This document shows positions 14,969-32,491 of a stretch of DNA of 64,000 nt, piece by piece. How positions within the stretch are numbered: the first letter of the stretch is position 1; every line of letters starts with the position of its first letter. The DNA lies in NCBI GenBank assembly GCA_963760795.1, contig CAVXEP010000004.1:128001-192000 (forward strand). Reading direction: 5' to 3'. The position numbers were made by a program, and so were the translations under genes. The notes below the pieces were generated by a model that saw only the letters and a program-made list of their open reading frames with translations, was not told the origin of the DNA and did not search any database. The DNA is from an uncultured delta proteobacterium (GTDB lineage Bacteria; Desulfobacterota; Binatia; UBA9968).

Positions 14969-15521
14969 ATGTCACATATTAGGCCCCTTCCCGTAGACGA
15001 TGCACCGCCGGAAGTACGAGATACTTACAACGATTTTTCCCGCAGGATGAATTTTCCTTCGCCGCCTAATTTCATCATGACCCAGGGGCATGCTCCCAAT
15101 GTAGCTAGAGGGACTTGGGATCTTGTGCGCAACGTGCTCGTGACCGGCAAAATTGAGCGCTGGATCAAGGAAATGGTTTTTGCCGCAATTTCACAGGATC
15201 GCAACTGTCATTATTGTACCGCGGCCCATCTTGCGTGTTGCCGGATGTTGGGCGTAGATCCCGTCTTTCTGAATTCTTTAGTGCGCGACGTCAATTCGCT
15301 TAGCGATGCGAAACTGCGCGATATGATTTTGTTTGGCCTAAAATGCTCCAGAGACCCGCAAAGCATATCTAAAACCGACTACGCACATGCTGGGCCACCA
15401 CGGACTCGGTCAGCCTGAGATATTGGAATTGATCGCAATGTCCGGCTTGGCTGTGTATGCGAATATTATGGCCGATGCCACCGGCATGGAAGCGGACGCC
15501 ATGTTTGCCAGTCTTTCGTAA
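14969..15521 (+). CDS. Carboxymuconolactone decarboxylase/AhpD-like peroxidase-related protein; indel near 15385
   Basis: KEMVFAAIS..RNCHYCTAAH (CxxC-H); continuation HGLGQPEILELIAMSG in the next frame. Confidence 0.75.
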
Positions 15522-16179
15522 GGTAGTTTTCTGCGTGCTCTTTGCCGCCGGATCTTTAGTAAAAATTCTTCTGTGATATTGCTAGAACATGAAGTTCGAA
15601 AATGACCGAGGCGAGCCGGTGGAAATAAACTTTCAGAATTTCGAAAGTATATTGTCAACGGCCGAAGCCGGCTTCACTCGCGTGAAGCTTAAAGACGGGC
15701 AAGTAGTATCGGTGCAAGCGACGGAAAATGAAATTCTCGAAGCCACGGTGGAAGAATAGGCATGCCGCGCGCGAGAGTTTTCCTTGAGAAATTGAGTTGA
15801 TTTTTTCCTCATTCTTCGCTGTTTCTGATTGACTGATCTTGCCTTGGCCCGGTTGCTTCGTCGTCGGTCGCGCCGTTTTTGCGCTGGTCACCTTTTTTCC
15901 TGCCATTATGTAAGCTCGCACTAGAGTTGCCTGGGGCTTAAGCGGTTACGGACGATATATTGATCCCTTTTCTAAAGCTCTCATTGTGGTACTTTTAGAC
16001 CATGGATGTGAAAACCAAAAATGCAGGCCGCCTGCGAAAAGTTAAACAAATTAAAGAGCCTGTAGAGGTCGAGGAGAAAACCGTTACACCCGGGCTCGAA
16101 AAAGTAGAGATTAAAAACCCGAGAAAACCGCCCGTAAAAGCACCGCGGCAGAAGTAGATAATTGGAATCCACCGCTGAA

Positions 16180-16325
16180 ACCTGTGGAACGACTGGAACC
16201 GGGGTTTCGCGGTGTGCCGGGGTATATTGAACTTTTGAACCCTTGAACGGGTTCGTCCCCGCCTTCATCCCGCCCAAATCCGTCCTTGAACTTTTGAACC
16301 TTTGAACGTGGGTCAATCGTTTGGA
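16180..16325. repeat. Composite TGGAAC/TTGAAC repeat, copy A
   Basis: ggaacgactggaacc...gccggggtatattgaacttttgaacc...ttgaacttttgaacctttgaacgtgggtcaatcgtt. Confidence 0.8.
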
Positions 16326-16338
16326 AGGACAAATCCCC

Positions 16339-16646
16339 ATGAAGATCGAATACGATACCGCGCACGATCTACTAAACATCGAGTTTCTGGCCAACGTTAC
16401 ATCGAGTTTCTGGCCAACGTTGCCATCGACGACTCGCTGGAGATCGATGGTGTAGTCATCGACTACGCAAAAGACAAGCGCATCGTCGCCATCGAAGTGC
16501 TCGATGCGAGTAAGCGAACGACGCGCAAGCCTTTCGACCTTACGAACCTGGCCATCGTGAAGTCTACCGGGTCGGATACCGTGCCGGAAAGCGAGGAGAA
16601 GTACGGCAAAAAGCGGCCGGACAAGTCTAAACGTCGCCGCTCATGA
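16339..16646 (+). pseudogene. DUF2283 family protein disrupted by a 23-bp tandem duplication
   Basis: MKIEYDTAHDLLNIEF...VVIDYAKDKRIVAIEVLDASK; 16376-16398 is repeated at 16399-16421. Confidence 0.75.
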
Positions 16647-16663
16647 TCGAAGTAAAAATAATG

Positions 16664-16812
16664 GCTTGAACGATTTGAACGGGCCGATCTTCTATGGTTT
16701 TGAACGACACGTCGCGGTTGAACGTTTGGAACGACTGGAACTGATGGAATCGGGGTTGCGAGAGGAGCCGGGGTAATTGAACTTTTGAACTTTTGAACGT
16801 AGGTCAATCGTT
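16664..16812. repeat. Composite TGGAAC/TTGAAC repeat, copy B (direct to copy A)
   Basis: ggaacgactggaac...gccggggtaattgaacttttgaacttttgaacgtaggtcaatcgtt. Confidence 0.8.
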
Positions 16813-16868
16813 GAGAGTCTTGAGCTGGTTTGTAGTACACTGCTGTATCACATGGTGGAGTCGTGTTT

Positions 16869-17135
16869 ATGCCTTTGAGCGTTCGCTTAGATCAAAAGAC
16901 CGAGTCCTTGATCGGACGGTTGGCTCGCAGGAGACGACAGACCAAATCGGAAGTTATTCGGGACGCGATCGGTGTGCTCGCCAAACAGGAAGAGACGGGC
17001 GCGGTGAAAACGCGCCCTTATGAACTGGTGGCTCATCTGATTGGCTGTGTCAAAGGCGGACATCGGGATCTTTCCGTAGATGCGAGCAAGAAGGTCCGAG
17101 AAATGCTTGTCGAGCGAGCCCGCAAGCGTCGATGA
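16869..17135 (+). CDS. Ribbon-helix-helix (CopG-like) antitoxin
   Basis: LSVRLD...LARRRRQTKSEVIRDAI; overlaps the PIN gene (ATGA). Confidence 0.82.
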   Translation: MPLSVRLDQKTESLIGRLARRRRQTKSEVIRDAIGVLAKQEETGAVKTRPYELVAHLIGCVKGGHRDLSVDASKKVREMLVERARKRR

Positions 17136-17542
17136 TCCTTGTCGACGCAGGGCCGCTGATCGCCCTCATACACCAAGACGACAATCAACATGAGCGTTGT
17201 CGAGACGCCTTTGCCGCGCTCGACGAGCCGCTCGGCACGGTGTGGCCCGTAGTCACCGAAGCCCTGCACCTTTTGAATTTTTCTTGGCGCGCCCAGGATG
17301 CACTTTGGGAGATGATCGCGACCGGCGCGATAGCAATCATGCCGTTAGCAATCGAGGACGTCCCGCGCATTAGAGAATTGATGCACAAGTACCGCGATTT
17401 GCCGATGGATCTGGCGGACGGTGCCTTGGTTCGCGTCGCCGAGCGCGAACGGTTGCGGCGAATCTTCACCCTCGACCGTCGTGATTTTCAGGTTTATCGG
17501 CCCGCTCGGCTCGGTCGCTTTGCGATCATACCGGCCCGGTAA
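17132..17542 (+). CDS. PIN-domain VapC toxin
   Basis: MILVDAGPLIAL, VVTEA, PMDLADG, IFTLDRRDF. Confidence 0.9.
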   Translation: MILVDAGPLIALIHQDDNQHERCRDAFAALDEPLGTVWPVVTEALHLLNFSWRAQDALWEMIATGAIAIMPLAIEDVPRIRELMHKYRDLPMDLADGALVRVAERERLRRIFTLDRRDFQVYRPARLGRFAIIPAR

Positions 17543-17699: not shown

Positions 17700-18053
17700 A
17701 TGGATTTCATAGTAGAGTTTTACGAAACAACGGCGGGAAAGTGTCCGGTGCGGGAGTTTCTGCTGGAACTCAAGGCCAGCGATCCCGGCGACTTTGCAGC
17801 GGTGACAGCGGGGTTGGAGAAACTGCGCCATCGCGTGTATCACCGCGAGCCGCTGACCAAGGCTCTGAACGACGGCCTGTTTGAGTTGCGCCACGTTGGC
17901 AAGTTGAACACGCGCGTACTGTGGTTCTTTATGAATGGCCGGCGCATCGTCGCAGTTCACGGCGTCCGCAACAAAGGCCAGTCGATCCTGGCTCGCGATT
18001 TCGACACCGCACGGGCACGGATGCGCGACTGGCAAGAAAGGAATGAGCGATGA
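17700..18053 (+). CDS. RelE/HigB (Gp49-like) toxin
   Basis: VEFYETTAGKCPVREFL, GLFELR, RVLWFF...IVAVHG. Confidence 0.85.
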   Translation: MDFIVEFYETTAGKCPVREFLLELKASDPGDFAAVTAGLEKLRHRVYHREPLTKALNDGLFELRHVGKLNTRVLWFFMNGRRIVAVHGVRNKGQSILARDFDTARARMRDWQERNER

Positions 18054-18424
18054 GCAAGACGAACTTTGATGTTTTTCTGGAAGAGCAACTCCGCGACCCG
18101 GATTTCGCGGCACGGTTCAAGCGGGCAGGCGAGGCGTGGGATGTGGCGTTGCAGATTGTGGCGCTGCGCGAGAAGGCCGGCCTCTCGCAAAAGGACCTCG
18201 CGCGCAAACTCAAGACTTCCCAGCAACAGATCAGCCGCCTCGAATCGCCGTCGTACGAAGGTCATTCGTTGAGCATGTTGCGCCGCGTCGCCAACGTCTT
18301 ACACGCGCGGGTGCGCGTGGAGTTCGAAACGGACAGCGACCCCGCGCATGTTGCCGAGAAAGCAGCGCCCTACGGCAAGACCGCCGTGAAGGCGCGGAGA
18401 TTACGACGCAAAGTACGTCTTTGA
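18050..18424 (+). CDS. XRE/HigA-type HTH antitoxin
   Basis: LREKAGLSQKDLARKLKTSQQQISRLES; overlaps the toxin stop. Confidence 0.88.
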   Translation: MSKTNFDVFLEEQLRDPDFAARFKRAGEAWDVALQIVALREKAGLSQKDLARKLKTSQQQISRLESPSYEGHSLSMLRRVANVLHARVRVEFETDSDPAHVAEKAAPYGKTAVKARRLRRKVRL

Positions 18425-18749: not shown

Positions 18750-19558
18750 ATGCCAAGAACAAAAGAGAGACCGGGGGTTGACGCTTATTTCGATGCAATG
18801 CAGCGGATTTTCAACTTGCAGTCGGAAATCCTTACGGGTGTGTTACCGCACAACGCGGAGCGCGGGCGAAAGGATGAGGAGCGGTTCCGAGATTTTCTAA
18901 GCAAAGTGCTCCCCAAAAGTATAGTGTTGGCACGGGTTTCATAATCTGCTCGGATCCGGAGATTCCGCTAAGCAACCAAACAGACGTTGTGATATTCGAC
19001 GAAATATCTAACTCTCCCTTACATAAAGAACTCTCGGCGTTTGTATATCCGGTTGAGATGGTTTACGGGGCGGTCGAAGTTAAAGGTGCTTTATGTTTCC
19101 AAGACCTCGAGAAAATCGCCATTGATATTCTAAAAATCAGAGAGTTAGCAGCGTACCGCTACTACATTACCTATGGGAGCAAACAAAAAGATGGCGGTTC
19201 CGAACATGAATTAGTAGTGGACCAAAACGAGTTTAACGTCCCTAGCCCTGCACCCAGAACATTTGTATTCGCATACTCGCAACGTGGATGGAAAAATATT
19301 GACGGGCTTGTAAAAAGCCTACAGCAAGTTTTGAAAAAAAACCCCGCGCACATCCACGGTCTCGTTGTGCTCGACAAAGGCTGGTACCTTAACCAGGAAG
19401 CGTATTCCTCAACAGGACATGAGTTCTTCGCCTACACCGACAATGCGCTCTTACGTTTCATCAACGATATGCTGCACGCTATTTCGAGTATGGGAATGTT
19501 TCAAGCCTCAATTGATCGATATCTTCGTCTCAAGTTGCCTTTGAAGAAGCGAGATTGA
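18750..19558 (+). CDS. DUF6602-like putative PD-(D/E)xK nuclease; indel near 18918
   Basis: HNAERG..E..FRDFL...LP, then GTGFII...SNQTDVVIFD...YPVEMVYGAVEVK; lower GC than flanks. Confidence 0.7.
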
Positions 19559-19636
19559 CTAGCGAGCCAAGCTTTTCGATGTCGCCCAGAATTATTCCCC
19601 ATTCAGGGTCAGCGTAGGAGGTCGGGCCTGAGTATA

Positions 19637-19843
19637 GTATTGACTAATTGCCAAAACGTCGGGGGAAATTTCCGTAATACAGTTGGTTTTTTAAGCGAAT
19701 AAACCTCCGAGGGTCAGGTCCCCAAACTTGCAAGCGTAGAACCTATCTGTCTGCTTGCTGTTGAAAACAAAAGTTTTCTGAGCGCAAAACAGAGTGACCC
19801 GAGACACTGTATTTGCCGATCTTTATACACCTGAGAGGATGCG
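19637..19843 (+). repeat. ~200-260 bp dispersed non-coding element, copy 1
   Basis: Shares gtattgactaattgccaaaacgtc...ctgcttgctgttgaaaacaaaagttttctgagcgcaaaacagagtgacccgagacactgtatttgccgatctttat with copy 2; the 3' part is also in copy 3. Confidence 0.9.
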
Positions 19844-20154: not shown

Positions 20155-21729
20155 ATGGACGCTCGCGGAACCGCTGCGCCGGCGATCGATATCGATCGGA
20201 TCACGGCGGCGAGCGACCACGCAATCCACGATCTCGTCCGCTATCTCGCCGCACCTAGGCATCGGCCGCAACTCATGCAGCTCCTCGCCGACTCGCCGGC
20301 CTGGCTCATCGCGAAATCGCGCCGGCTCGGCGGCGACCAGTCGGTATTGGAGGACGTGCAGATCGCGATCGACAGCTTTCACGATCCGCTCGCCACCGCG
20401 GACGTTATCAACTTGCTCCGCCTATATGCGGTGCGGGGCGCGGTGCAACAGCGCGCGACCCAGCGTGAAGGCGGTGGGCTGGACAGGCTCGTCGCGTCGG
20501 GCCGGTTGACTGATGCGCTCGACGCGGCTCTCGTGCTGGCCGAACCAACCGAGAGGTTCGGCGCGCTCAAGATAATCTGGGCGTCGCTGACATGTCTGCC
20601 TGGTAGCTCGGCCGAGGCGCACGCAAACATTCTGCTCCACGCCGGCGATGCGGCCAACGAGATGCCGAACGAATTCTTAACGGGGCAGGACCGCGCCAAC
20701 GCACTAAGCTGGCTTATCGACGAGTTCCTCGCGCTCGGCGAAAACGACGCCGCGCACGAGACCCTCAAGCGAATGAGTCGTACGATTGGGGATCGCGAAG
20801 ACGCCGTTGTCCGTGTGTTAGTGGGTGACGCAAGAGCAGGCCGTCTCGACGCAGCGCTCACGTTAATCCCTGGGATCTACAACGTCTGGCAGGATAGCAA
20901 AGCGCGAACTGCGCTCGCTCGAGAGCTCTGGCTCGCTCGGCGATACGACGACGCGCTGAAGCTTAGCGGGGAGGTGGGGGCGTTCGTTCGGACGCGGGTG
21001 CTCGCCGCGATCATCGAGGTGTTCGACACTCGCGATGTCAGTACGAGACAGCCATTGCTCGACGACGCACTCGCGACTGGCCGTGCGATTCCGCCGATCC
21101 CCGATACCGAGACCGAAAATCCATGGGATCTGAAGTGTGCCGGCCTTCGGTCGCTCGCCAACGCGCTAGCGTCGATTGGCGACTTTGCTCGCGCGCGAAT
21201 TGCCGCCGACGAGATTCCGCACATCGTCGACTCGGCGTTAACGTGGAGCGATGTCGCCGCCACAGCGCGCCGCGCGGGCAATCACGCCCTTGCCCGAGAG
21301 CTCCTCAATGCCGCGAAGGCCGCCGCAGAACACCTGCGTAACCGCGACATTCACGCGAAGCTCGCCCTTGCACTAGCGGCGGAACTCTCCACGCCTCTCG
21401 ACGTCAGGTTTAGCCTCACTGACGTCCTCCAGGCTCTCATCGGCGAAGGACGATCCACAATGGCACTTGACCTGATCGAGTCCAGCGTGAGCGGCGATCG
21501 CGATCAATTGATCAACCGGGCATTGCAGGCGACGACATGGTCCGAGCCGGAGCGACGTCGCCTGACGCAGATCGCCGCAAGCAATGGCGCCTTCAAGAGC
21601 CTCAACGTCGGCACTGCGGTCGAACACCCAACCCCGGAGCCTCGCGTGCAAAGTGCGGTCGACGTGACGCGGCGTCTCGCCGCGCTCGAGTCCCAGCATC
21701 GCGACGCTCGTGAGCGTCCAGCTCAATGA
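20155..21729 (+). CDS. Helical/TPR-like repeat protein, N-terminal part (putative STAND partner)
   Basis: AGGAGG 5 nt before ATG 20155; N-terminal LVRYLA...LMQLL...WL..K...GGDQSVLEDV; repeats of type ALA..GDFARA...ADEI. Confidence 0.7.
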   Translation: MDARGTAAPAIDIDRITAASDHAIHDLVRYLAAPRHRPQLMQLLADSPAWLIAKSRRLGGDQSVLEDVQIAIDSFHDPLATADVINLLRLYAVRGAVQQRATQREGGGLDRLVASGRLTDALDAALVLAEPTERFGALKIIWASLTCLPGSSAEAHANILLHAGDAANEMPNEFLTGQDRANALSWLIDEFLALGENDAAHETLKRMSRTIGDREDAVVRVLVGDARAGRLDAALTLIPGIYNVWQDSKARTALARELWLARRYDDALKLSGEVGAFVRTRVLAAIIEVFDTRDVSTRQPLLDDALATGRAIPPIPDTETENPWDLKCAGLRSLANALASIGDFARARIAADEIPHIVDSALTWSDVAATARRAGNHALARELLNAAKAAAEHLRNRDIHAKLALALAAELSTPLDVRFSLTDVLQALIGEGRSTMALDLIESSVSGDRDQLINRALQATTWSEPERRRLTQIAASNGAFKSLNVGTAVEHPTPEPRVQSAVDVTRRLAALESQHRDARERPAQ

Positions 21730-23314
21730 GAGAGCGCAAGCACTACTCGGGGAGGTGGGGTGCATAGGCGAGAGCGCGACCAACGACACCATTCGGCTGG
21801 ACACGATTCGAATCCTCATGCGGTTCGATCGCGTCGATCAGGCGCTCCGCTTGATCCGACCCGACAAAAAGGACGAGGAGTTAGAGACGGTCGTGGGTAA
21901 CGCAGTCGATGCGGGGCGATGCACGCAAGCCATTCACATCATCGATCAGATTGGCAATCCCGCGACACACGACATCATGGTCGAGCGCATCGTCGAGCGG
22001 CTGATTGCAATGCGCCGATTCGACGACGCGATATCCGCCGGCCGTGCCGCGTCGACCTCCCTCTTCGAGCCGATGGGGCGCGTCGCGTGGAACCTCATTC
22101 GCTCTGGAGAGGTGACTCGCGGATACGAGCTCGCCAGGTCGCTCGAGGGCAATCACGTGACTGGTTCGGTGGTGGCTCTCCATGCGGTCGGCCGCCCCGA
22201 CCTCGCTCGCGAGCTGGCCGAGAAGTGCCTACGAGAGGCTCCGGGCGATCTCGAGCTCTTCGTCCAAGCACTGGCGGGCGAAGGGCTCTACCGCGAGGCG
22301 CTCACGCTGGCGCAACGACACACGGTTGGCCAGATTCGCGATCAGACGATGGCGCACATCGCGATCAGCGCCGCGTCGGTAGACGAGTTCGAGTTCGCGC
22401 TGTCTGCGGTGCGAGATATGACGAGTCGCAGAGATCAGGACAGGGTACTGCAATCGGTCGTCGCGGGACTTCAGCGTTTGGGTCGCTCGCGCGAGGCGGA
22501 GGCGATCGCCGATACGATGGCCGACTCCGGAAGGAGAGACGCGGGACTTCAGGGCCGGCCGATGCTACTCCCCGGTGCATCGATGAGCCTCTGGCTCGAC
22601 AGTGGATTACTCGCGTACATCCGTTACTCGGCCCGCAGTTTCGCGGTAGCGATGCGCGTGCCCAGGCTCACGGAACTCTCGCGCGCCTATGCCGCCGTGG
22701 GTGATTTCGCGTCCGCCATAAATGTCGCGAGAGACATTGCCAACGGTGCGGCGCAGGCTGATGAGCTGCAGCGCCTCGCCGAGCAGCTTGCGTCGCTAGG
22801 CCGGTTCGACGAAGCGTTGGCGCTGGCGCGCGACATTGGGCCCGCAATGTCGCGAGCCTTGCAGCTCCAGGGCCTGCCGCCCGGCGAGGCCGAAGTGACA
22901 GCAAATTTGACAGTCCTGTCGGATACCGCGGAGCTCGACCCCGCATCAGGCAGAGTAAACTTTCCCGACCAGATCGTGACCGCTCTCGCGGGGATCGCCA
23001 TTGCGATCCGCGAAGCTGGGCGCGCGGTGGAAGCTGAAGCAGTGGTGGCCGAAGCGCGCCGCGTTGCGACCGTGCATGAGCTCTCGGACGAGACCTTGCG
23101 GCGATTTGCTCGCGCTCTCGCTGCGCTGGACCGCTGGAGCGAAGCTATGCGTACACTCCCTGCGCATGACGCCTACGCGTTTGCGCTCGAAGTGCACGCG
23201 CTTCACGATCTGCTGAATCGATTGCAGCCTGGTCTGGCGCTCGACGCAACGAACGCGGTCACGCGTATAGCCGGGTGGTTCGACGAAACCTGGAAGGATC
23301 TCGTTGCCGCATGA
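21710..23314 (+). CDS. TPR-like repeat protein, C-terminal part (separate gene or frameshifted continuation)
   Basis: Repeats RRFDDAISA, GLYREALTLA, GDFASAINVARDI, GRFDEALALARDI; stop overlaps the TIR start (ATGA). Confidence 0.7.
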   Translation: MSVQLNERAQALLGEVGCIGESATNDTIRLDTIRILMRFDRVDQALRLIRPDKKDEELETVVGNAVDAGRCTQAIHIIDQIGNPATHDIMVERIVERLIAMRRFDDAISAGRAASTSLFEPMGRVAWNLIRSGEVTRGYELARSLEGNHVTGSVVALHAVGRPDLARELAEKCLREAPGDLELFVQALAGEGLYREALTLAQRHTVGQIRDQTMAHIAISAASVDEFEFALSAVRDMTSRRDQDRVLQSVVAGLQRLGRSREAEAIADTMADSGRRDAGLQGRPMLLPGASMSLWLDSGLLAYIRYSARSFAVAMRVPRLTELSRAYAAVGDFASAINVARDIANGAAQADELQRLAEQLASLGRFDEALALARDIGPAMSRALQLQGLPPGEAEVTANLTVLSDTAELDPASGRVNFPDQIVTALAGIAIAIREAGRAVEAEAVVAEARRVATVHELSDETLRRFARALAALDRWSEAMRTLPAHDAYAFALEVHALHDLLNRLQPGLALDATNAVTRIAGWFDETWKDLVAA

Positions 23315-24891
23315 GCAGTCGCCAGCCTCGCGTGTTCGTTTCACACACTGTTCGCGACGAACGCGATCGGGCGCTCGCCCACGGAATCGCCGACGCCCTG
23401 CAGGCACGCGGGAGCAAGGTCTGGATCGCACCGGAAAGTATTCCGGCCGGCGACGATTGGGAGGAGGCGATCGTCGCTGGTGTGCTCGATGAGTGCACGC
23501 ATTTTCTCGTCATTCTGTCGGCGGCGTCGGTAAGATCGAAATGGGTCCAGGCTGAGATCGAGCTCGCGCGGCGGCGCGCGAAGAAGTCTGCTCGGTTTCG
23601 GGTGCTTCCCCTTCGCGTCGGCGATCTGAAACGGTTTCCCAACGAGAAGTATCTCGGTACGCTGCAGGCCGTCCGCTACGAGGCGATTCTCGATCAACAG
23701 GTGCAGGCCATCGCCGACGCGATCGGTCTCGTCCCGGCGCTGCCGGCGTCACACCTAGACCTTGAGGATGACCACGGCGGTGGGTTCGTCGGGCGCGATC
23801 ATGCGTTCGCCGCCATCGATCAGTTCACGACGAGTCGCGCGAAGGGATACTTCACCATCGTCGGTGATCCGGGCGCCGGGAAGAGCAGTATTCTCGGCGA
23901 GCTGGTTCGGAGAACTGGGTGCGTCGCGCACTTCAACAGTCACGCGTCTGCCATTACGACGACGCGCCAGTTCGAGGAGAGCATCTGCCGTCGGCTCGAG
24001 GTGCGTTTCGACATCCACCCGCTCGTGGCGAGCACCGCGCACCACGATGGCGAACGGCTTCGGGTCTTCCTCAAAGGCGCAGCCGAGAAAGTCGCGCGAC
24101 GTGGTGAACGACCGCTCGTTATCGCCGTCGATGCGTTGGATGAGGTGTCCGACGTAGTGCCTAACGGGCCGAATACGTTGCTGTTGCCGCAGGTCATGCC
24201 TGACGGCGTCTACTTCATCATGACGCGCCGCCGCCTAACGCTGCCGCTCGTGTCGATATCGCCGCAGACCGTCTGGGACCTGAGCGATTTCCCACAGGAA
24301 AACCGGCGGGACATCGAAGTGTACTTTCGAGCGGCCGCAAAACGCCCAAAGGTTCGGAAGTGGATCGAGTCCAGCCGCGGGCAGCTTGGAGACTTCCTCG
24401 ACACGCTGGTTGCCAAGAGCGAGCTGAATTTCATGTACGCGCATTATGTGGTGCAGGCGATCGAGAGCGAAGCCTATGAGGATGCACGACTTGACGCATT
24501 GCCGACGGGGCTCCGCGGCTACTACGAGGCCCACTGGGCACGAATGGGAATGCTCGCTTCGCCACTCCCGCGAGAGAAAATTCGAATCATCTACGCGCTC
24601 TCCGAGATCGCGCGTCCGGCATCGGTGGTGGAGATCAGCAGGTTTGCGAGCGATGACACGATAACCATCGATCCGCTGCGGGTCTCGGAGCTGTTGCGGG
24701 AGTGGAGACCCTTCCTCCATCAGGAAGGCACTGGAATAGCCGGGCGGTTCGGCATCTATCACGAGAGCTTTCGAGACTTCCTTCGCCAACAGGAAGTGGT
24801 TCAAGCAGCTGGCATATGGCTCGACGATGTGAGAGACCGCATCGTGGGGAGCCTTTGGGAGGAAGTGGCGGGCCACAAGGCCCCCTCGTGA
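23311..24891 (+). CDS. TIR domain + STAND/NACHT-type NTPase with no C-terminal repeats
   Basis: VFVSH, IPAGDDW, ILSAAS..SKWVQAE (TIR); FVGR, GDPGAGKS (Walker A), VIAVDALDE (Walker B), LPTGL..YYE, IYHESFRDFL. Confidence 0.9.
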   Translation: MSSRQPRVFVSHTVRDERDRALAHGIADALQARGSKVWIAPESIPAGDDWEEAIVAGVLDECTHFLVILSAASVRSKWVQAEIELARRRAKKSARFRVLPLRVGDLKRFPNEKYLGTLQAVRYEAILDQQVQAIADAIGLVPALPASHLDLEDDHGGGFVGRDHAFAAIDQFTTSRAKGYFTIVGDPGAGKSSILGELVRRTGCVAHFNSHASAITTTRQFEESICRRLEVRFDIHPLVASTAHHDGERLRVFLKGAAEKVARRGERPLVIAVDALDEVSDVVPNGPNTLLLPQVMPDGVYFIMTRRRLTLPLVSISPQTVWDLSDFPQENRRDIEVYFRAAAKRPKVRKWIESSRGQLGDFLDTLVAKSELNFMYAHYVVQAIESEAYEDARLDALPTGLRGYYEAHWARMGMLASPLPREKIRIIYALSEIARPASVVEISRFASDDTITIDPLRVSELLREWRPFLHQEGTGIAGRFGIYHESFRDFLRQQEVVQAAGIWLDDVRDRIVGSLWEEVAGHKAPS

Positions 24892-24997
24892 TGGAACACG
24901 CTTCACAACGTCAAGTCGCTCGGACCGTCCTGCAACAGCCCGAGCGACTTGACGGTCTTTCAATTGTCGTGCACAGCAGCTCAGCTCAACATATAAA

Positions 24998-25189: not shown

Positions 25190-25231
25190 CGCGCGCGCGT
25201 TCAGAAAGGCGCCGGGGTCAGGCGTAGGTAT

Positions 25232-27072
25232 TGGTTCTGCTGAAAAACCCCTGAATTTGATTCGCGACCGCCGCTAGTAAACAGTGGTCATCGCCAAATA
25301 ATGTTACGCCAGAGAAAGTTTCACCCTCAACGAAGCCATAGCCAGGAAAATGAGCTGCGCTCCGCCCTTAAGCGGGGCTCAGAGGCGGCGTTCTCATCTG
25401 AAACGCGAGTAGATTTAGATATCGTTTTACGTTGCAAGCTGCACCTATGAAGTAATTCGATAAACCGACCCGGCTTAAGCCCCGATATTTCGTCCGTCTC
25501 ATCGCGTGCCCACGCACCAACTCGCTGTGGGTTCCCTCAATCCCGTTTCTCGGATGCATGGATTTGGAGAAACCTTTCTGTTTCATTTCTCTGCGCCGCT
25601 GCTCGACCAGATCATGGCGCAGTCCAACGACCAAAGTTCTCCGTCCACTCTTGGACCGCGTACATTGCTTTTGTACCGGACAGCTATTGCATTGATTGCC
25701 CCACTCGATGCGATAGTACTCGGTTCCCATATAGTTATCTTTGATGCGGCTGCACTGCGTGCTGAGCTTGCCCTGAGGACAAACCGCCTGGCGCTCGTTG
25801 ATATCGACATGGAACGCATCGCTATTGTAGGGTCCCTTGTGAGGATCGGGACGCGTCGGTCCTAATAACTCCATGCCGTTTTGTTCCGCCTGCGTTAAGG
25901 TGTGCTCGGTCACATAACCTGCATCGGTGTAGATCGCCCGGGGTTCGATCTCATGGTGCGCTTGTTCTCTTGTGAGCGTCTCGGTCAAGCCAGCCTTCTC
26001 GTCCTGGGCCGCTTCGACGGTCAGCATCTCGGTGATGAAATGGTCGGTGGGCTCGCCCTTTTTCTTGATCGGTTGTTGAGGATCGACAGTCTCGGTTACA
26101 TGCACCTTGTAGCCGATCCATTGCTTGCTCCTCTTATCGGCATAATGCGCATCGGAATCATGGGGGTTCTGCACCGCGCGAGGCGGTCGCTTGGGGGCGA
26201 GCTCAAGCTTTCCGTCGACCATCTCAAACTGCTCGCCAAAGACTCGCCGCAATAGTTTCACTGCTTCACGTCCAGCGAGCTTAGGATCGTTTCCGTCTAG
26301 CCACTCCAGCAGCTCTCTCATGTCTTGCCCACACTGCCGATAGCGGCGGTCGCGCTCGGTCTTGTTTAGCCGCCAATCCAGTTTGCTCTCTACATACAGT
26401 TCCCACAACCTGTCCCAAAATTCTGGCTGCTTTTTCCTCCCCACTTTTACTTTCAAATCCTCCAACGCCAAGCGCAGCGTCTCTATCGCGCACTCCAACA
26501 AGCTCATCGCCTTGACGTACCCCACGATATGCGTGCTATCGAGCCGCTGCTTGCCCTTTCTCTTCACCAATCCCAGCTCCACCAGCAACTTAACTATCCC
26601 GTCAAAGATCATCCGCTCGACTTTGTTGTCTTCCAACCGGTCGCGAAAATAAACTAACACCGTGGCATGAAACCCGGCGTAATCCAGTTCCAGATCTAAG
26701 GCGTACTTCCAACCCAGATGATACACCACGCGCTCGGTGGCCGAGCGATCTGCTGCTTTCTCCATGAACTGGAGCAGCGTCACTCCGCAAAGTAGCACCG
26801 GATCGATCCCCGGCCGGCCGTTCTCGGCGCAATACAACGCTTCAAGTTTCGGGGAAAGCTCTAAAAGCTTGGGCCAGATCTTTTCCCGAAACAACCGGTA
26901 GCGATTGGCTGGACCGAAAAGATCTCCAGCAAGATAGTCGGTATGATAAAAGCTTCTCTGTGCAGCGACGGCTCTTACGCTCATGAGAAAACGATGAAGG
27001 CGATATCGTCGCTTGTCAACGTAGATTTAACTGAACAAACAAAAAACTTGAGGGGGTTTTTCAGCAGAACCA
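25232..27072 (-). mobile_element. IS1182-family insertion sequence with 20-bp terminal IRs and 4-bp target duplication GTAT
   Basis: tggttctgctgaaaaacccc (25232-25251) / ggggtttttcagcagaacca (27053-27072); GTAT at 25228-25231 and 27073-27076. Confidence 0.9.
25368..26984 (-). CDS. IS1182-family DDE transposase
   Basis: GRPGIDP (DUF772-like), LDSTHI, GYKVHVTET, DAGY, CPQG...C..CPV...C, IEGTHSELVR...YRGL. Confidence 0.9.
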   Translation of the reverse strand: MSVRAVAAQRSFYHTDYLAGDLFGPANRYRLFREKIWPKLLELSPKLEALYCAENGRPGIDPVLLCGVTLLQFMEKAADRSATERVVYHLGWKYALDLELDYAGFHATVLVYFRDRLEDNKVERMIFDGIVKLLVELGLVKRKGKQRLDSTHIVGYVKAMSLLECAIETLRLALEDLKVKVGRKKQPEFWDRLWELYVESKLDWRLNKTERDRRYRQCGQDMRELLEWLDGNDPKLAGREAVKLLRRVFGEQFEMVDGKLELAPKRPPRAVQNPHDSDAHYADKRSKQWIGYKVHVTETVDPQQPIKKKGEPTDHFITEMLTVEAAQDEKAGLTETLTREQAHHEIEPRAIYTDAGYVTEHTLTQAEQNGMELLGPTRPDPHKGPYNSDAFHVDINERQAVCPQGKLSTQCSRIKDNYMGTEYYRIEWGNQCNSCPVQKQCTRSKSGRRTLVVGLRHDLVEQRRREMKQKGFSKSMHPRNGIEGTHSELVRGHAMRRTKYRGLSRVGLSNYFIGAACNVKRYLNLLAFQMRTPPLSPA

Positions 27073-27333
27073 GTATTGACTAATTGCCAAAACGTCAGGG
27101 GAAATTTCCGTAATACAGGTGGTTTTTGAAGCGAAGAAAGTTCCGAGGCACAGGTGTTGAAACTTGCAAGCGTGGAACCTCTCTGTCTGCTTGCTGTTGA
27201 AAACAAAAGTTTTCTGAGCGCAAAACAGAGTGACCCGAGACACTGTATTTGCCGATCTTTATGTACCTGCTAGGATGCGGCGAGCCAATTTTGTCGATCA
27301 TCGCGGCTGCGGCCGCCGTTGAAAGGATCCCTG
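27073..27333 (+). repeat. Dispersed non-coding element, copy 2 (longest)
   Basis: Aligns with 19637-19843 and 32287-32491. Confidence 0.9.
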
Positions 27334-27444
27334 CTCGGTCGGCAAATCATTGTCAAAATTGTCGCTAGTGATACAACTATCGACTGAGCGGTGACGCAGC
27401 AACCCTGACACAGAAAACTTGGAGTGCAAACAGTGGAGTCGTCC

Positions 27445-28789
27445 ATGGTGCGAGCGAAAGCGATCTACTTTATCAACCAGTTTTTCGCCGGTGTCGGCGG
27501 TGAAGACAAAGCCGACCACGCGCTTGAACTTCGGCGGGAAGCGCTCGGCCCGGCCAAATATTTTCAGGAGTTGAGCAGGGATTCCGTCGATGTTGTTGCG
27601 ACGGTTTATTGCGGCGACAACTACTTCGCCGACCACTCGAGCGCGGTGGTCGAGGCAAGTCGTCGAAGCCGTCCGTAGCAACGGCGCGACAATTTTTATT
27701 GCCGGCCCGGCGTTTGGCTCCGGGCGCTATGGTTATGCCTGTGTCGAGCTCTGCCACCATGTGACCACTGCCACGGGAATCCCTTGCTTGAGTGCAATGG
27801 CGTTGGAGAATCCCGGGGTGGAGCTGTATCAACAATACAAGGATCGGCAGGTTTATCTCTTGCCCACCGGCGAAGCGGTCTCCGGTATGAGGGATATGCT
27901 GGCGCGCATGGCGCGCTTCGCCAAGCGGTTAGCCGGTGGCACGGTCATCGGACCCGCTGTGGACGAGGGATACATCCCCCGTGGCATACGCGTCGCTGCC
28001 CTAGCGCCGAAGCGTGGGGTGGAGCGCGCGGTCGATATGATGTTGGCGAAGGTTGCCGGGAGAGATTTTGTCAGTGAAATCCCGATCGAAACCGTTGAGC
28101 AGACGCCCATTGCCGCGCCGATCGGCAATCTCAAACAGGCCCGGCTGGCGTTGGTCAGTACCGCCGGCGTAGTGGCGCCGGGCAACCCCGACGGTTTCAA
28201 AACCAATGGCAACACGCAGTGGCGCAAGTATGCCGTCGGACAGATCGACTCGATGACCGATGCGCCCTGGGACGTGTGGCATGGCGGCTACAACACGGTG
28301 TTCATGCACGACAATCCCAACTACGGCGTGCCGCTGGATAGCTGCCGCGAATTCGAGCAGGCCGGCGGCATCGGCAAAGTCCATCCCTATTTTTATTCCA
28401 TCCCCGGCTCTTTCGGCCAAATATCGATCATGCAAAACATCGGCAAAGAGATCCTGCGCGACATGAAGGAGGAAGGCGTCAGCGGCGCGCTGCTGGTGTC
28501 GACCTGAGGGACCTGCACTCGCAGCGGCGCTGCGATCGCGCGGGAAATCGAACGGGGCGGTATTCCGGTTGCGCATATCACTTCCATGGCCGAGCTGGCC
28601 AAGCAGATGAAATCGAAACGCATCGTCATCGGCACCAAGATCCCGCACCCATGCGGCGATCCCAACTTGCCGCCGGACGCGGACCAGGCGCTGCGGCGCG
28701 AGATCGTCGCCACCGCGCTCAAAGCTCTGCAGATGGACGTCGAGGGGCCGGAGACTTTCAAGCCGGCAATCTCCTACACTTCGGGATAG
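27445..28789 (+). CDS. grdB: Glycine/sarcosine/betaine reductase selenoprotein B family; Sec at UGA 28505-28507; indel near 27655
   Basis: YFINQFFAGVGGEDKAD, YCGDNYF, AGPAFGSGRYG.AC, HGGY, PLD, LVST-UGA-GTCTRSG continuing in frame to 28789. Confidence 0.88.
28508..28535 (+). promoter_or_regulatory. Bacterial SECIS-like hairpin
   Basis: 11-nt spacer after UGA, then perfect 7-bp stem tcgcagc-GGC-gctgcga (28519-28535). Confidence 0.75.
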
Positions 28790-28797
28790 GCTGCGCT

Positions 28798-30106
28798 ATG
28801 CGATTGGAACTGGTCAGCTTTCCAGTAACGATGGTGCGCCGTGGCACGCAGACGCGTTATCAAAACGGCGCGTTGGAAATCGACATCGACGATCTGTCGG
28901 CGCTGGTGCTGTCCGACCCGAAAGTGGCGAGCGCCGACCTCGACATCGCTTTCCCCGGCGAGAAGACGCGCATCGTGCGCGTGCGCGACGCCGTCGAACC
29001 GCGCATCAAAGTGGCTGGGCCGGGCGCGGTTTTCCCCGGTATCCTGGGACCGGTGGAAACGGTTGGCGAGGGGCGGACGCATCGGCTTGCCGGGCTCACC
29101 GTCATCGCCTCGGCGGAATATGAGCGGACGATTTTCGAAGGCACCGCAGCGGGCCGCACCGGCCTGGTCGACATGTGGGGCCTGGCGGGCGAGCTGACGC
29201 CGTTCGGCTCGACGATCAATATTGTCCTCAAGATCGAGCTGCGCGGCGGTATTTCCGAATTAGAAGCCCATACGGCTATTCAACTGGCGGAGTTGCGGCT
29301 CGCGCGCGCGTTGGCGGAGACGACCCGGGAGTTAACGACTAAAGATGTCGAAGTGTTCGAAACCGGCGCTGCCGATCCGTCGTTGCCGCGGGTTGTTTAC
29401 GTTCTCGGCTGTCGCACGGCGTGGCACGAGCCCCATTCCGGTGTCGCGCTGTACGGCTTGCCGATCCGCGAGTCGTTTCCGACGCTCCTCCATCCCAATG
29501 AATTTCTCGACGGCGCCTTCACTTCCGACGCGCGGCGCGGCGGCCGCGGCACCTTTCCCAGGTACCTGGTATTGGATGAATCAGCCGGTGGTATTGCAGC
29601 TGCTGCGCGAGCATGGCAAGCGGCTCAATTTCCTGGGCGTGATCCTGCAGCGCACCCGCTTCGAGAGCGACTTCGGCAAGCAGGTGAGCGCCATGGCGGT
29701 GTCACAAATGGCCAGGATGCTCCACGCCGACACCGCTCTGATCACTCGCACCGGACCGTCGGGCAACAATTTCATCGACACCATGATGACGCTGCAGGCC
29801 TGCGAGAGTAAAGGAGTGAAAACGGTGCTGCTGACGCCGGAATGGGGCGGCCGGCAAGGCACCGAGCTGCCGCTGATGTTTTACGTCCCCGAGGCGACGG
29901 CGATGGTGACCACCGGCAGTCTGGATCGGCTGATCGACTTTGCCGCGCCGGACAAAGTCATCGGCGCGGGCGATACTCGCGTCGTCGAAATTGCCACCGG
30001 CGATCCGCCCATCGAGCCGGCGACCGCGTTCGTCGGCGACATGAGCTATTTACAGGACGGCATCGACTGGTGGGGCGAGTCGCGCCAGTATTGCGCGGTT
30101 TATTGA
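28798..30106 (+). CDS. Glycine/sarcosine/betaine reductase component B subunit (GrdE/GrdI-like); indel near 29560
   Basis: MRLEL, IAFPGEKTRI...DAVEPR.K, VGEGRTHRL, GLVDMWG, TPFG, PTLLHPNEFLDGA, NQPVV..L...HGK.LNFLGVI, GVKTVLLT. Confidence 0.85.
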
Positions 30107-32280: not shown

Positions 32281-32286
32281 GCGAGC

Positions 32287-32491
32287 TCCGAGGCTCAGGT
32301 CTTGAAACTTGCAAGCGTAGAACCTCTCTGTCTGCTTGCTGTTGAACCCAAAAGTTTTCTGAGCGCAAAACAGAGTGACCCGAGACACTGTATTTGCCGA
32401 TCTTTATGCACCTGATAGGATGCGGCGAGCCAATTTTGTCGATCATCTTTGTCGATCATGGCGGCTGCGGCCGCCATTGAAAGGATCCCTG
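32287..32491 (+). repeat. Dispersed non-coding element, copy 3 (5'-truncated, with an internal 13-bp duplication)
   Basis: Aligns with copy 2; tttgtcgatcat occurs twice; ends gaaaggatccctg directly before ATG 32492. Confidence 0.9.

Follow-up and report, generated by a model that had tools for sequence, protein, structure and literature searches.

Three consecutive genes, P0001, P0002 and P0003, in a 64,000-nt stretch of DNA (the window; contig CAVXEP010000004.1, positions 128,001 to 192,000, from an uncultured delta proteobacterium) probably form a single operon for an NLR-like STAND receptor (NLR, nucleotide-binding leucine-rich repeat protein; STAND, signal transduction ATPase with numerous domains) that is made in two chains. 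We give this reading, which takes in the identity and general mode of action of the receptor, a probability of about 0.75. Chain A (P0003) would carry the effector (TIR) and the nucleotide switch (nucleotide-binding domain (NBD), lid and winged helix), and chain B (P0001 plus P0002 here, a single open reading frame (ORF) in the nearest relatives) would carry an HD2-type module followed by the sensor, a TPR/PPR-like solenoid of about 900 residues. Judged from the relatives surveyed below, the split between NTPase and sensor is a trait of a large family, in which the sensor-first gene order of the window is a minority variant.

The three genes lie one after another on the + strand with no gap between them (Table 1). 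A ribosome-binding site, AAGGAGG, is found 6 nt 5' of the P0001 ATG. The P0002 gene starts with GTG in another frame than P0001 and the two overlap by 20 nt, while the ATG of P0003 overlaps the P0002 stop codon as ATGA, with GGAAGGA located 11 nt upstream of that ATG; an earlier sequence-only reading of the window had pointed out this overlap of a repeat ORF with the start of a TIR-NTPase gene, and its coordinates are exact. A hairpin beginning 18 nt past the P0003 stop codon is likely the end of the operon (a simple terminator scan did not call it). A promoter scan upstream of 20155 gave nothing useful (1 site versus 1.4 expected), and an Rfam scan of the window gave zero matches.

The P0003 protein starts with the TIR domain that the sequence-only reading had noted together with its WVQAE glutamate (residues 8-124; Pfam TIR_2, E 3.4e-20, score 73.2 bits, cut-off 28), followed by an NTPase (AAA_16, E 2.3e-9, 38.4 bits against a cut-off of 32.6, residues 159-280). 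Only AAA_16 passes among the NTPase models; NPHP3_N (18.9 versus 24.8) and nSTAND1 (18.7 versus 27.1) stay below their cut-offs, and Pfam NACHT gives no match on P0003. Relatives of P0003 do match NPHP3_N, AAA_lid_TANC1 and NACHT, and HTH_TANC1 matches are present in its fused relatives. In an alignment of 24 TIR-bearing family members the following residues are invariant in 24/24: the WVxxE glutamate E82 of the TIR domain, G185, G188, G190 and K191 of Walker A (GDPGAGKS, residues 185-192), D274-A-L-D-E278 of Walker B, and H484 in the putative winged-helix motif YHESFRDFL. The Walker B residues fit D[GAS]hDE, which is given as the NACHT-type signature in the available text of the preprint of Kibby et al. 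All 24 aligned members end at the same place, approximately 35 residues after YHESFRDFL, and therefore P0003 is not truncated and the short form is normal; 148 of the 156 relatives with a complete C-terminus are at most 700 aa long. The end shortly after the winged-helix motif and the lack of sensor repeats, as described for P0003 in the sequence-only reading, are confirmed.

The closest solved relatives of the P0003 TIR domain by sequence are the TIR domains of TIR-APAZ proteins (E 8e-9 to 2e-8), and E82 aligns with the glutamate of the VLKEI motif in a TIR-APAZ chain. We take this type of TIR glutamate to be the catalytic residue, and the domain is likely to cleave NAD+. The NTPase part has no close relative among solved structures. 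In a word-indexed protein search, P0003 found 109 proteins at E<=0.001, itself included; 58 of the 108 others are full-length TIR-NTPase proteins of 482-624 aa, and most of the remaining 50 have the same NTPase behind another N-terminal domain (EAD10, trypsin, CHAT, HTH, others) or none. A check against models of defence systems, which the sequence-only reading had proposed as a test of novelty, gave no full-length PADLOC or NCBIfam match: PADLOC found only TIR-domain matches in P0003 (ThsB models included) and zero matches in P0001 and P0002, and no NCBIfam model came near its cut-off for P0003. Against the PADLOC 2.0 Avs1b model P0003 matched over residues 252-308 only (E 0.088), with no full-length Avs match, and the NTPase of its relatives gave a weak partial match to Avs1b (E 1e-11, model positions 199-533 of 1924).

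The link between the two chains comes from the N-terminus of P0001. When P0001 was searched against 1.84 billion representatives at E<=0.001, 112 matches were found, and residues 1-150 alone, re-scored against 111 of those representatives, matched 108. Of the 108 matches, 59 lie inside long chains and begin no earlier than residue 280; 42 begin within the first 60 residues and 7 in between. The profile of the P0003-family NTPase ends just before the P0001-like stretch in 29 of the 59 internal matches, and none of the 42 N-terminal matches carries an NTPase profile match. In P0180, for example, NTPase profile positions 264-513 fall on residues 168-435 and HD2 follows from 447; in P0118, profile positions 258-489 fall on residues 167-400 and the P0001-like stretch follows from 436. 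Pfam detected an NTPase family in all of eight long chains examined and APAF1_C in four (P0115, P0123, P0126 and P0137), where it coincides with the P0001-like stretch; P0123 has the architecture TIR_2, NB-ARC, APAF1_C and TPR in one chain. Longer relatives of P0003 are few (5). They include P0228 (1528 aa), which is 44% identical to P0003 over 99% of P0003; its NTPase profile match spans residues 1-521 and its HD2 module 535-674. In a profile comparison with hhalign, the N-termini of TPR-type partners (that of the window included) matched those of 22 WD40-type partners with 98% probability (E 2e-13). These matches make the P0001 N-terminus a homologue of the HD2/APAF1_C segment found after the NTPase in fused STAND chains, and they uphold the resemblance to a post-STAND helical segment noticed in the sequence-only reading, with 59 of 108 matches internal and APAF1_C on the same stretch. 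The match coordinates put the cut between the chains where the APAF1_C region begins or slightly inside it; residues 492-526, which form the conserved tail of P0003, may therefore contribute the first HD2 helix.

The sequence-only reading had also described about 1050 aa of TPR-like repeats immediately upstream of the TIR-NTPase. Size, position and repeats hold, with helical repeats totalling approximately 1050 residues, but they are spread over two ORFs in different frames and are not one ORF. P0002 passes the Pfam cut-offs of TPR_19 and TPR_14, and P0001 passes none; a profile of the P0001 family searched against the Protein Data Bank found designed PPR/TPR solenoid proteins (best E 7e-38). 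The best P0001 match in an exhaustive search is P0112, a single ORF of 970 aa, whose residues 1-432 align with P0001 16-456 (53% identity) and whose residues 518-967 align with P0002 82-531 (57% identity). Since both align to this single-ORF protein, P0001 and P0002 can be regarded as deriving from a single ancestral gene, of which each is one half. Upstream of 21668 the P0002 frame is closed, the stop codon of P0001 occupies 21727-21729, and the frame change falls in a poorly conserved linker of P0112; in a tblastn search with P0112 the frame-1 alignment passes through the P0001 stop to 21882. We judge the linker too poorly conserved for the break to be placed more finely than 21668-21729.

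Because the nearest orthologue is one ORF and two nearby grd genes are also frame-broken, we read the break between P0001 and P0002 as an assembly error or decay and not as a designed split. Assembly indels are the more likely cause, given that two other genes within 6 kb are broken in the same way. No homopolymer of 6 or more is present at the break. Nine public sequencing runs were listed for positions 21200-22200, and none of them contained more than 6% of the sampled words. CTCGAG is present in the break zones of both the sensor gene and the GrdB-like gene, and a methylation-motif artefact was considered and rejected: the frame-switch signature occurs at only 1 of the 16 CTCGAG sites in the window, with random positions the same count was reached in 57 of 200 trials, and at four of the sites, all within P0001-P0003, the frame is unbroken. 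As for the grd genes themselves, the GrdB-like selenoprotein gene (window 27440-28510) has one frame change near 27640-27680, and the TGA at the end of its ORF stands in a context resembling U-x-x-C (STxGTC) and probably encodes selenocysteine and not a stop. In the gene of the Gly_reductase family (28651-30106), profile positions 1-239 are found in ORF 28651-29811 and positions 251-386 in ORF 29345-30106.

A genome scan with the P0003 sequence alone found zero relatives. Scans with the family alignment succeeded, finding 397 relatives in species-representative genomes and 302 in metagenome contigs, and the best 80 loci of each set were analysed (160 loci, 150 distinct NTPase sequences). The HD2 profile was run on all ORFs of at least 80 aa at these loci, and directly downstream was defined as within 150 nt. 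Several loci are near-identical and cyanobacteria dominate, so that the loci are not independent, and we give counts with no statistical test; among the 80 genome loci 53 are cyanobacterial, 10 are from Chloroflexota and 9 from Actinomycetota. An HD2-first ORF lies directly downstream of the NTPase gene on the same strand in 102 of the 160 loci and further downstream in another 10. It is adjacent upstream on the same strand in 4 (L013, L014, L067 and L100) and far upstream in 1; the partner gene is divergent in 3 loci and convergent in 3 (2 adjacent, 1 far), and HD2 is fused to the NTPase in 2. In 4 loci the NTPase C-terminus is incomplete, and in 5 no partner was found on a contig without room for one. 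The gene order of the window had been called reversed, and relative to the usual NTPase-then-sensor order it is. The statement that such proteins are single chains fails for this clade. The proposal of a two-component NLR gains from the HD2 homology and the adjacency; what does not stand is the notion that the split is peculiar to this locus.

Among the 103 adjacent NTPase/partner pairs the two genes overlap in 87, and the partners comprise 84 WD40 propellers and 19 others. An NTPase profile match or Walker A motif was found in 0 of the 103 partners. Pfam analysis of ten downstream partners detected WD40 in six (weakly in the L009 partner), weak TPR in one and nothing in three, and APAF1_C is found at the partner N-terminus in L009 (residues 14-98) and L004 (residues 25-73). 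In a FastTree phylogeny of the NTPase parts the unusual gene orders fall mainly in one well-supported clade of 15 rows, with scattered cases elsewhere; the NTPase of the window groups with P0004-P0006 on a long branch, and for the other members of this clade no gene context is visible. At some loci the NTPase gene is closely preceded by one more large gene, i.e. a second STAND chain with its own HD2 (L004, 5137-8004), a caspase-domain protein (L012, 4651-7875) and a TPR-CHAT protein (L022, 3747-6605), and these loci may hold extra effectors.

In 22 of the 160 loci, two to four HD2-first sensor genes stand in tandem behind one short NTPase gene. Examples, in which the genes are HD2-first WD40 genes, are L033 (9211-end), L045, L004 (9517-end), L098 and L133, and the space between the tandem genes is too small for further NTPase genes. 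In 15 tandem paralogue pairs, not all of them independent, the first 120 residues are a median of 48% alike versus 36% for the rest, and the N-terminal value exceeds the C-terminal one in 14 of the 15. We tentatively propose, as a possibility that we hold well short of the operon itself, that there is a large undescribed class of two-chain bacterial NLRs in which one effector-NTPase chain works with exchangeable HD2-sensor chains as a combinatorial receptor. If so, a single switch would pair with alternative sensors and specificity could be altered by gene swap instead of domain swap. The window, with its sensor gene first, would then show that the gene order is free, as expected if the chains assemble after translation.

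The mode of action that we propose is modelled on Apaf-1-type and NLR-type STANDs and on bacterial TIR effectors, and it takes as its starting point the domain content, conserved residues, HD2 homology and gene adjacency observed above. The HD2 module of chain B would dock on the winged helix and tail of chain A, thereby completing the switch and holding it off. Binding of a foreign (phage) protein to the solenoid would release the switch; nucleotide exchange and ATP-dependent oligomerization would then gather the TIR domains, and the clustered TIR domains would cleave NAD+, leading to abortive infection or signalling. Chain B is interrupted in this assembly, which may reflect an inactive locus or a mistake of the assembly at that point.

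Several observations weigh against the two-chain receptor. With the sensor in two frames and no clear ribosome-binding site before the P0002 GTG, the whole receptor may not be made at this locus. P0001 has no match to Pfam APAF1_C at E<=1, and its score is weak (8.3 bits, E 3e-4 among 10 sequences) against a profile made from the N-termini of downstream partners with P0001 left out. No P0003 relative was found at E<=1e-30 in 122 other genomes of the same order, i.e. the locus is not conserved in its lineage; the same absence fits with a recently acquired accessory cassette, and the locus fits one horizontally acquired copy in this genome. In favour of the two-chain receptor, the orthologue clusters of sensor and TIR-NTPase both have members on 9087-nt contigs (same source) and likewise on 8626-nt contigs, which suggests, circumstantially, that the nearest orthologues of the two share contigs. 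No partner was found in 26 of the 160 loci on contigs with room for one; part of the partnerless loci are explained by start-calling overlaps (L011, L092 and L094), and in L007 an upstream TPR protein of 1022 aa was missed by the HD2 profile yet matched by P0002, and some may be real singletons. These 26 loci are what could be said for the view that the repeat genes and the TIR-NTPase are unrelated neighbours and that the NTPase works alone. The HD2 homology, the collinearity with fused chains and the adjacency counts already disfavour that view, and we consider it very improbable.

The other alternatives concern what the locus does or whether it still does it. The locus may be a decaying remnant with a real frame change and no full-length sensor, the system being inactive or the TIR-NTPase silenced or unregulated; this would be a matter of its state in this genome and not of its identity. 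The single 970-aa ORF of the nearest orthologue versus two frames here, the lack of an obvious ribosome-binding site before P0002, an insertion sequence (IS) 340 nt downstream, and an upstream PD-(D/E)xK ORF that covers only the last third of its profile would be in keeping with decay. However, both halves are still 53-57% identical to the orthologue and contain no additional stops, P0003 has kept all its catalytic residues, and two housekeeping-type grd genes within 6 kb are broken alike, which points to assembly indels and not to selective decay; we regard decay as possible but doubtful. It is unlikely that the sensor acts mainly as an inhibitor (antitoxin-like or a guard) of a constitutively active TIR-NTPase that is activated by loss, degradation or sequestration of the sensor. 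Separate chains would allow dissociation, the sensor-first order with ATGA coupling would have the sensor made before or with the effector, and toxin-antitoxin (TA) modules adjoin, but single-chain relatives with the same modules (P0228, P0123 and the 59 representatives with internal matches) cannot work by dissociation, and the sensor gene comes second in most relatives. A cell-death or signalling switch in development or kin conflict, with no antiviral role, as suggested for numerous STAND systems in bacteria of filamentous or multicellular growth, would suit the weight of Cyanobacteria, Chloroflexota and Actinomycetota among the genome loci, such systems being associated with a multicellular habit in the available parts of Kaur et al. 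(2020, 2021). We think this quite unlikely, as the variable effectors (TIR, trypsin, CHAT, EAD10, HTH) on one NTPase core, the patchy distribution, the shift in G+C and the IS and TA surroundings fit mobile defence genes instead.

With the single-chain STAND/NLR-like defence proteins (Avs, bNACHT and TIR-NLR) the two-chain receptor has in common an effector at the N-terminus, a STAND NTPase with a predicted winged helix and a large sensor of TPR or WD40 type, and, like them, it belongs to a group with variable effectors on one NTPase core. It differs from them in that the sensor is a separate, HD2-first gene, which here precedes the NTPase gene. The available text of the Kibby et al. preprint states that bNACHT genes are rarely in operons and that those operons are poorly conserved. 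Once both chains are joined, the module order is that of Apaf-1 and the AP-ATPases (NBD-HD1-WHD-HD2-WD40), and APAF1_C marks HD2 both in the fused relatives and in WD40-type partners. The differences from Apaf-1 are the break at or just inside the start of HD2, a Walker B motif (DALDE) that is NACHT-like and not of the AP-ATPase type, a TIR effector instead of CARD, and, in the window, an alpha-solenoid sensor instead of a propeller. The TIR domain is closest by sequence to SPARTA TIR-APAZ among the oligomerization-activated TIR NADases, with the conserved glutamate aligned; in P0003 the TIR domain is coupled to a STAND switch and not to a short Argonaute. As to Thoeris, the ThsB models match only the TIR part of P0003, and no ThsA-type partner (SIR2/SLOG or similar) is present in the scanned neighbouring ORFs.

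Paired and helper NLRs in plants and animals consist of two complete NLRs, each with an NTPase of its own, whereas here a single receptor would be divided over two chains, of which the sensor chain lacks an NTPase. The distribution of recognition and execution over two polypeptides is common to both (NAIP/NLRC4 and sensor/helper pairs; PMC9975940, available portion). Green algae possess stand-alone APAF1_C/WD40 proteins without an NTPase in the chain, i.e. HD2 plus a propeller, which are a eukaryotic parallel to the bacterial sensor chains, although in the portion of the source at hand no adjacent NTPase gene is reported for them (PMC8891106). In the openly accessible literature, with supplements and subscription journals outside the scope of the search, we found no text that explicitly describes the pairing of an NTPase gene and an HD2-first sensor gene. 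The components are of known kinds; for the split between switch and sensor, its breadth, the tandem sensors and the free order we found no earlier description, and an earlier mention may exist. The available part of a 2026 survey in Nature states that only C-terminal regions of at least 400 aa (34,990 of 178,641 proteins) were kept for sensor analysis, and short NTPases such as P0003 fell outside that analysis as a result of this requirement. If short NTPases have their sensors in neighbouring genes, a large part of the recognition repertoire has escaped notice. With its natural division between switch and sensor, such a receptor would also be a handy object for studying how a signal passes from ligand to NTPase, and for asking whether exchange of the sensor chain changes specificity. 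The interest lies in the pattern at family level, since the locus itself has an uncommon arrangement and its sensor gene is doubtful.

Table 1. Features of the putative two-chain receptor locus and its surroundings (window coordinates)
Feature	Position	Strand	Basis or remark
P0001 (sensor, N-terminal part: HD2-like module, then helical repeats)	20155..21729	+	ORF, 524 aa
HD2-like docking module (P0001 residues ~20-152)	20212..20610	+	match to post-NTPase region of fused STANDs and to partner N-termini
Reading-frame change zone, P0001 to P0002	21668..21729	+	ORF boundaries
P0002 (sensor, C-terminal part, TPR/PPR-like repeats)	21710..23314	+	ORF, 534 aa
P0003 (TIR effector and STAND NTPase: NBD, lid, winged helix, short tail; without repeats)	23311..24891	+	526 aa
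TIR domain (P0003 residues 8-124, including E82)	23332..23682	+	Pfam TIR_2
NTPase module (P0003 residues 159-491): Walker A GDPGAGKS, Walker B VDALDE, winged helix with H484	23785..24783	+	AAA_16, invariant columns
Hairpin, 20-bp stem, then GTCTTTC	24909..24954	+	inverted repeat, 90% complementary, 6-nt loop
VapBC pair	16863-17542		left of cassette
Gp49/HigB-like and HTH pair	17700-18424		left of cassette
ORF with PD-(D/E)xK match	18989-19558		only last third of DUF6602 and PADLOC PD_DExK models
208-nt direct repeat, left copy	19636..19843	+	91% identical to 27072-27279
IS with 23-nt terminal inverted repeats	25229..27075	-	arms 25229-25251 and 27053-27075, 96% complementary
208-nt direct repeat, right copy	27072..27279	+	repeat search
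208-nt repeat, third partial copy, before NMT1-like gene	32286..32428	+	repeat search

The surroundings of the three genes fit mobile defence genes. The IS appears complete and encodes a transposase of 538 aa (25368-26984, - strand; Pfam DDE_Tnp_1_6 and DUF772), and on its right side it meets the right copy of the 208-nt repeat. All three copies of this repeat in the genome fall within 13 kb, each of them 5' of a gene start, and the defence cassette and the IS lie between two of them. The repeat has no match in Rfam; it might serve as a common promoter or leader, or as a site of recombination by which the cassette is gained or lost. The TA and nuclease surroundings noticed in the sequence-only reading were found as the VapBC pair, the Gp49/HTH pair and a PD-(D/E)xK remnant, the last of which may be one more gene that is truncated or frame-broken. 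Beside the cassette, the scanned neighbouring ORFs include no further known defence system. The G+C content is 63.5-64.5% in the three-gene segment, 50-54% in the TA-rich stretch to its left and approximately 57-62% in most of the remaining window. A low-GC stretch shared with the TA pairs (window 15410-16840) contains four small ORFs on the - strand (82, 88, 137 and 125 aa) with no Pfam or PADLOC match, and is overlapped by a DUF2283 ORF on the + strand (16302-16646).

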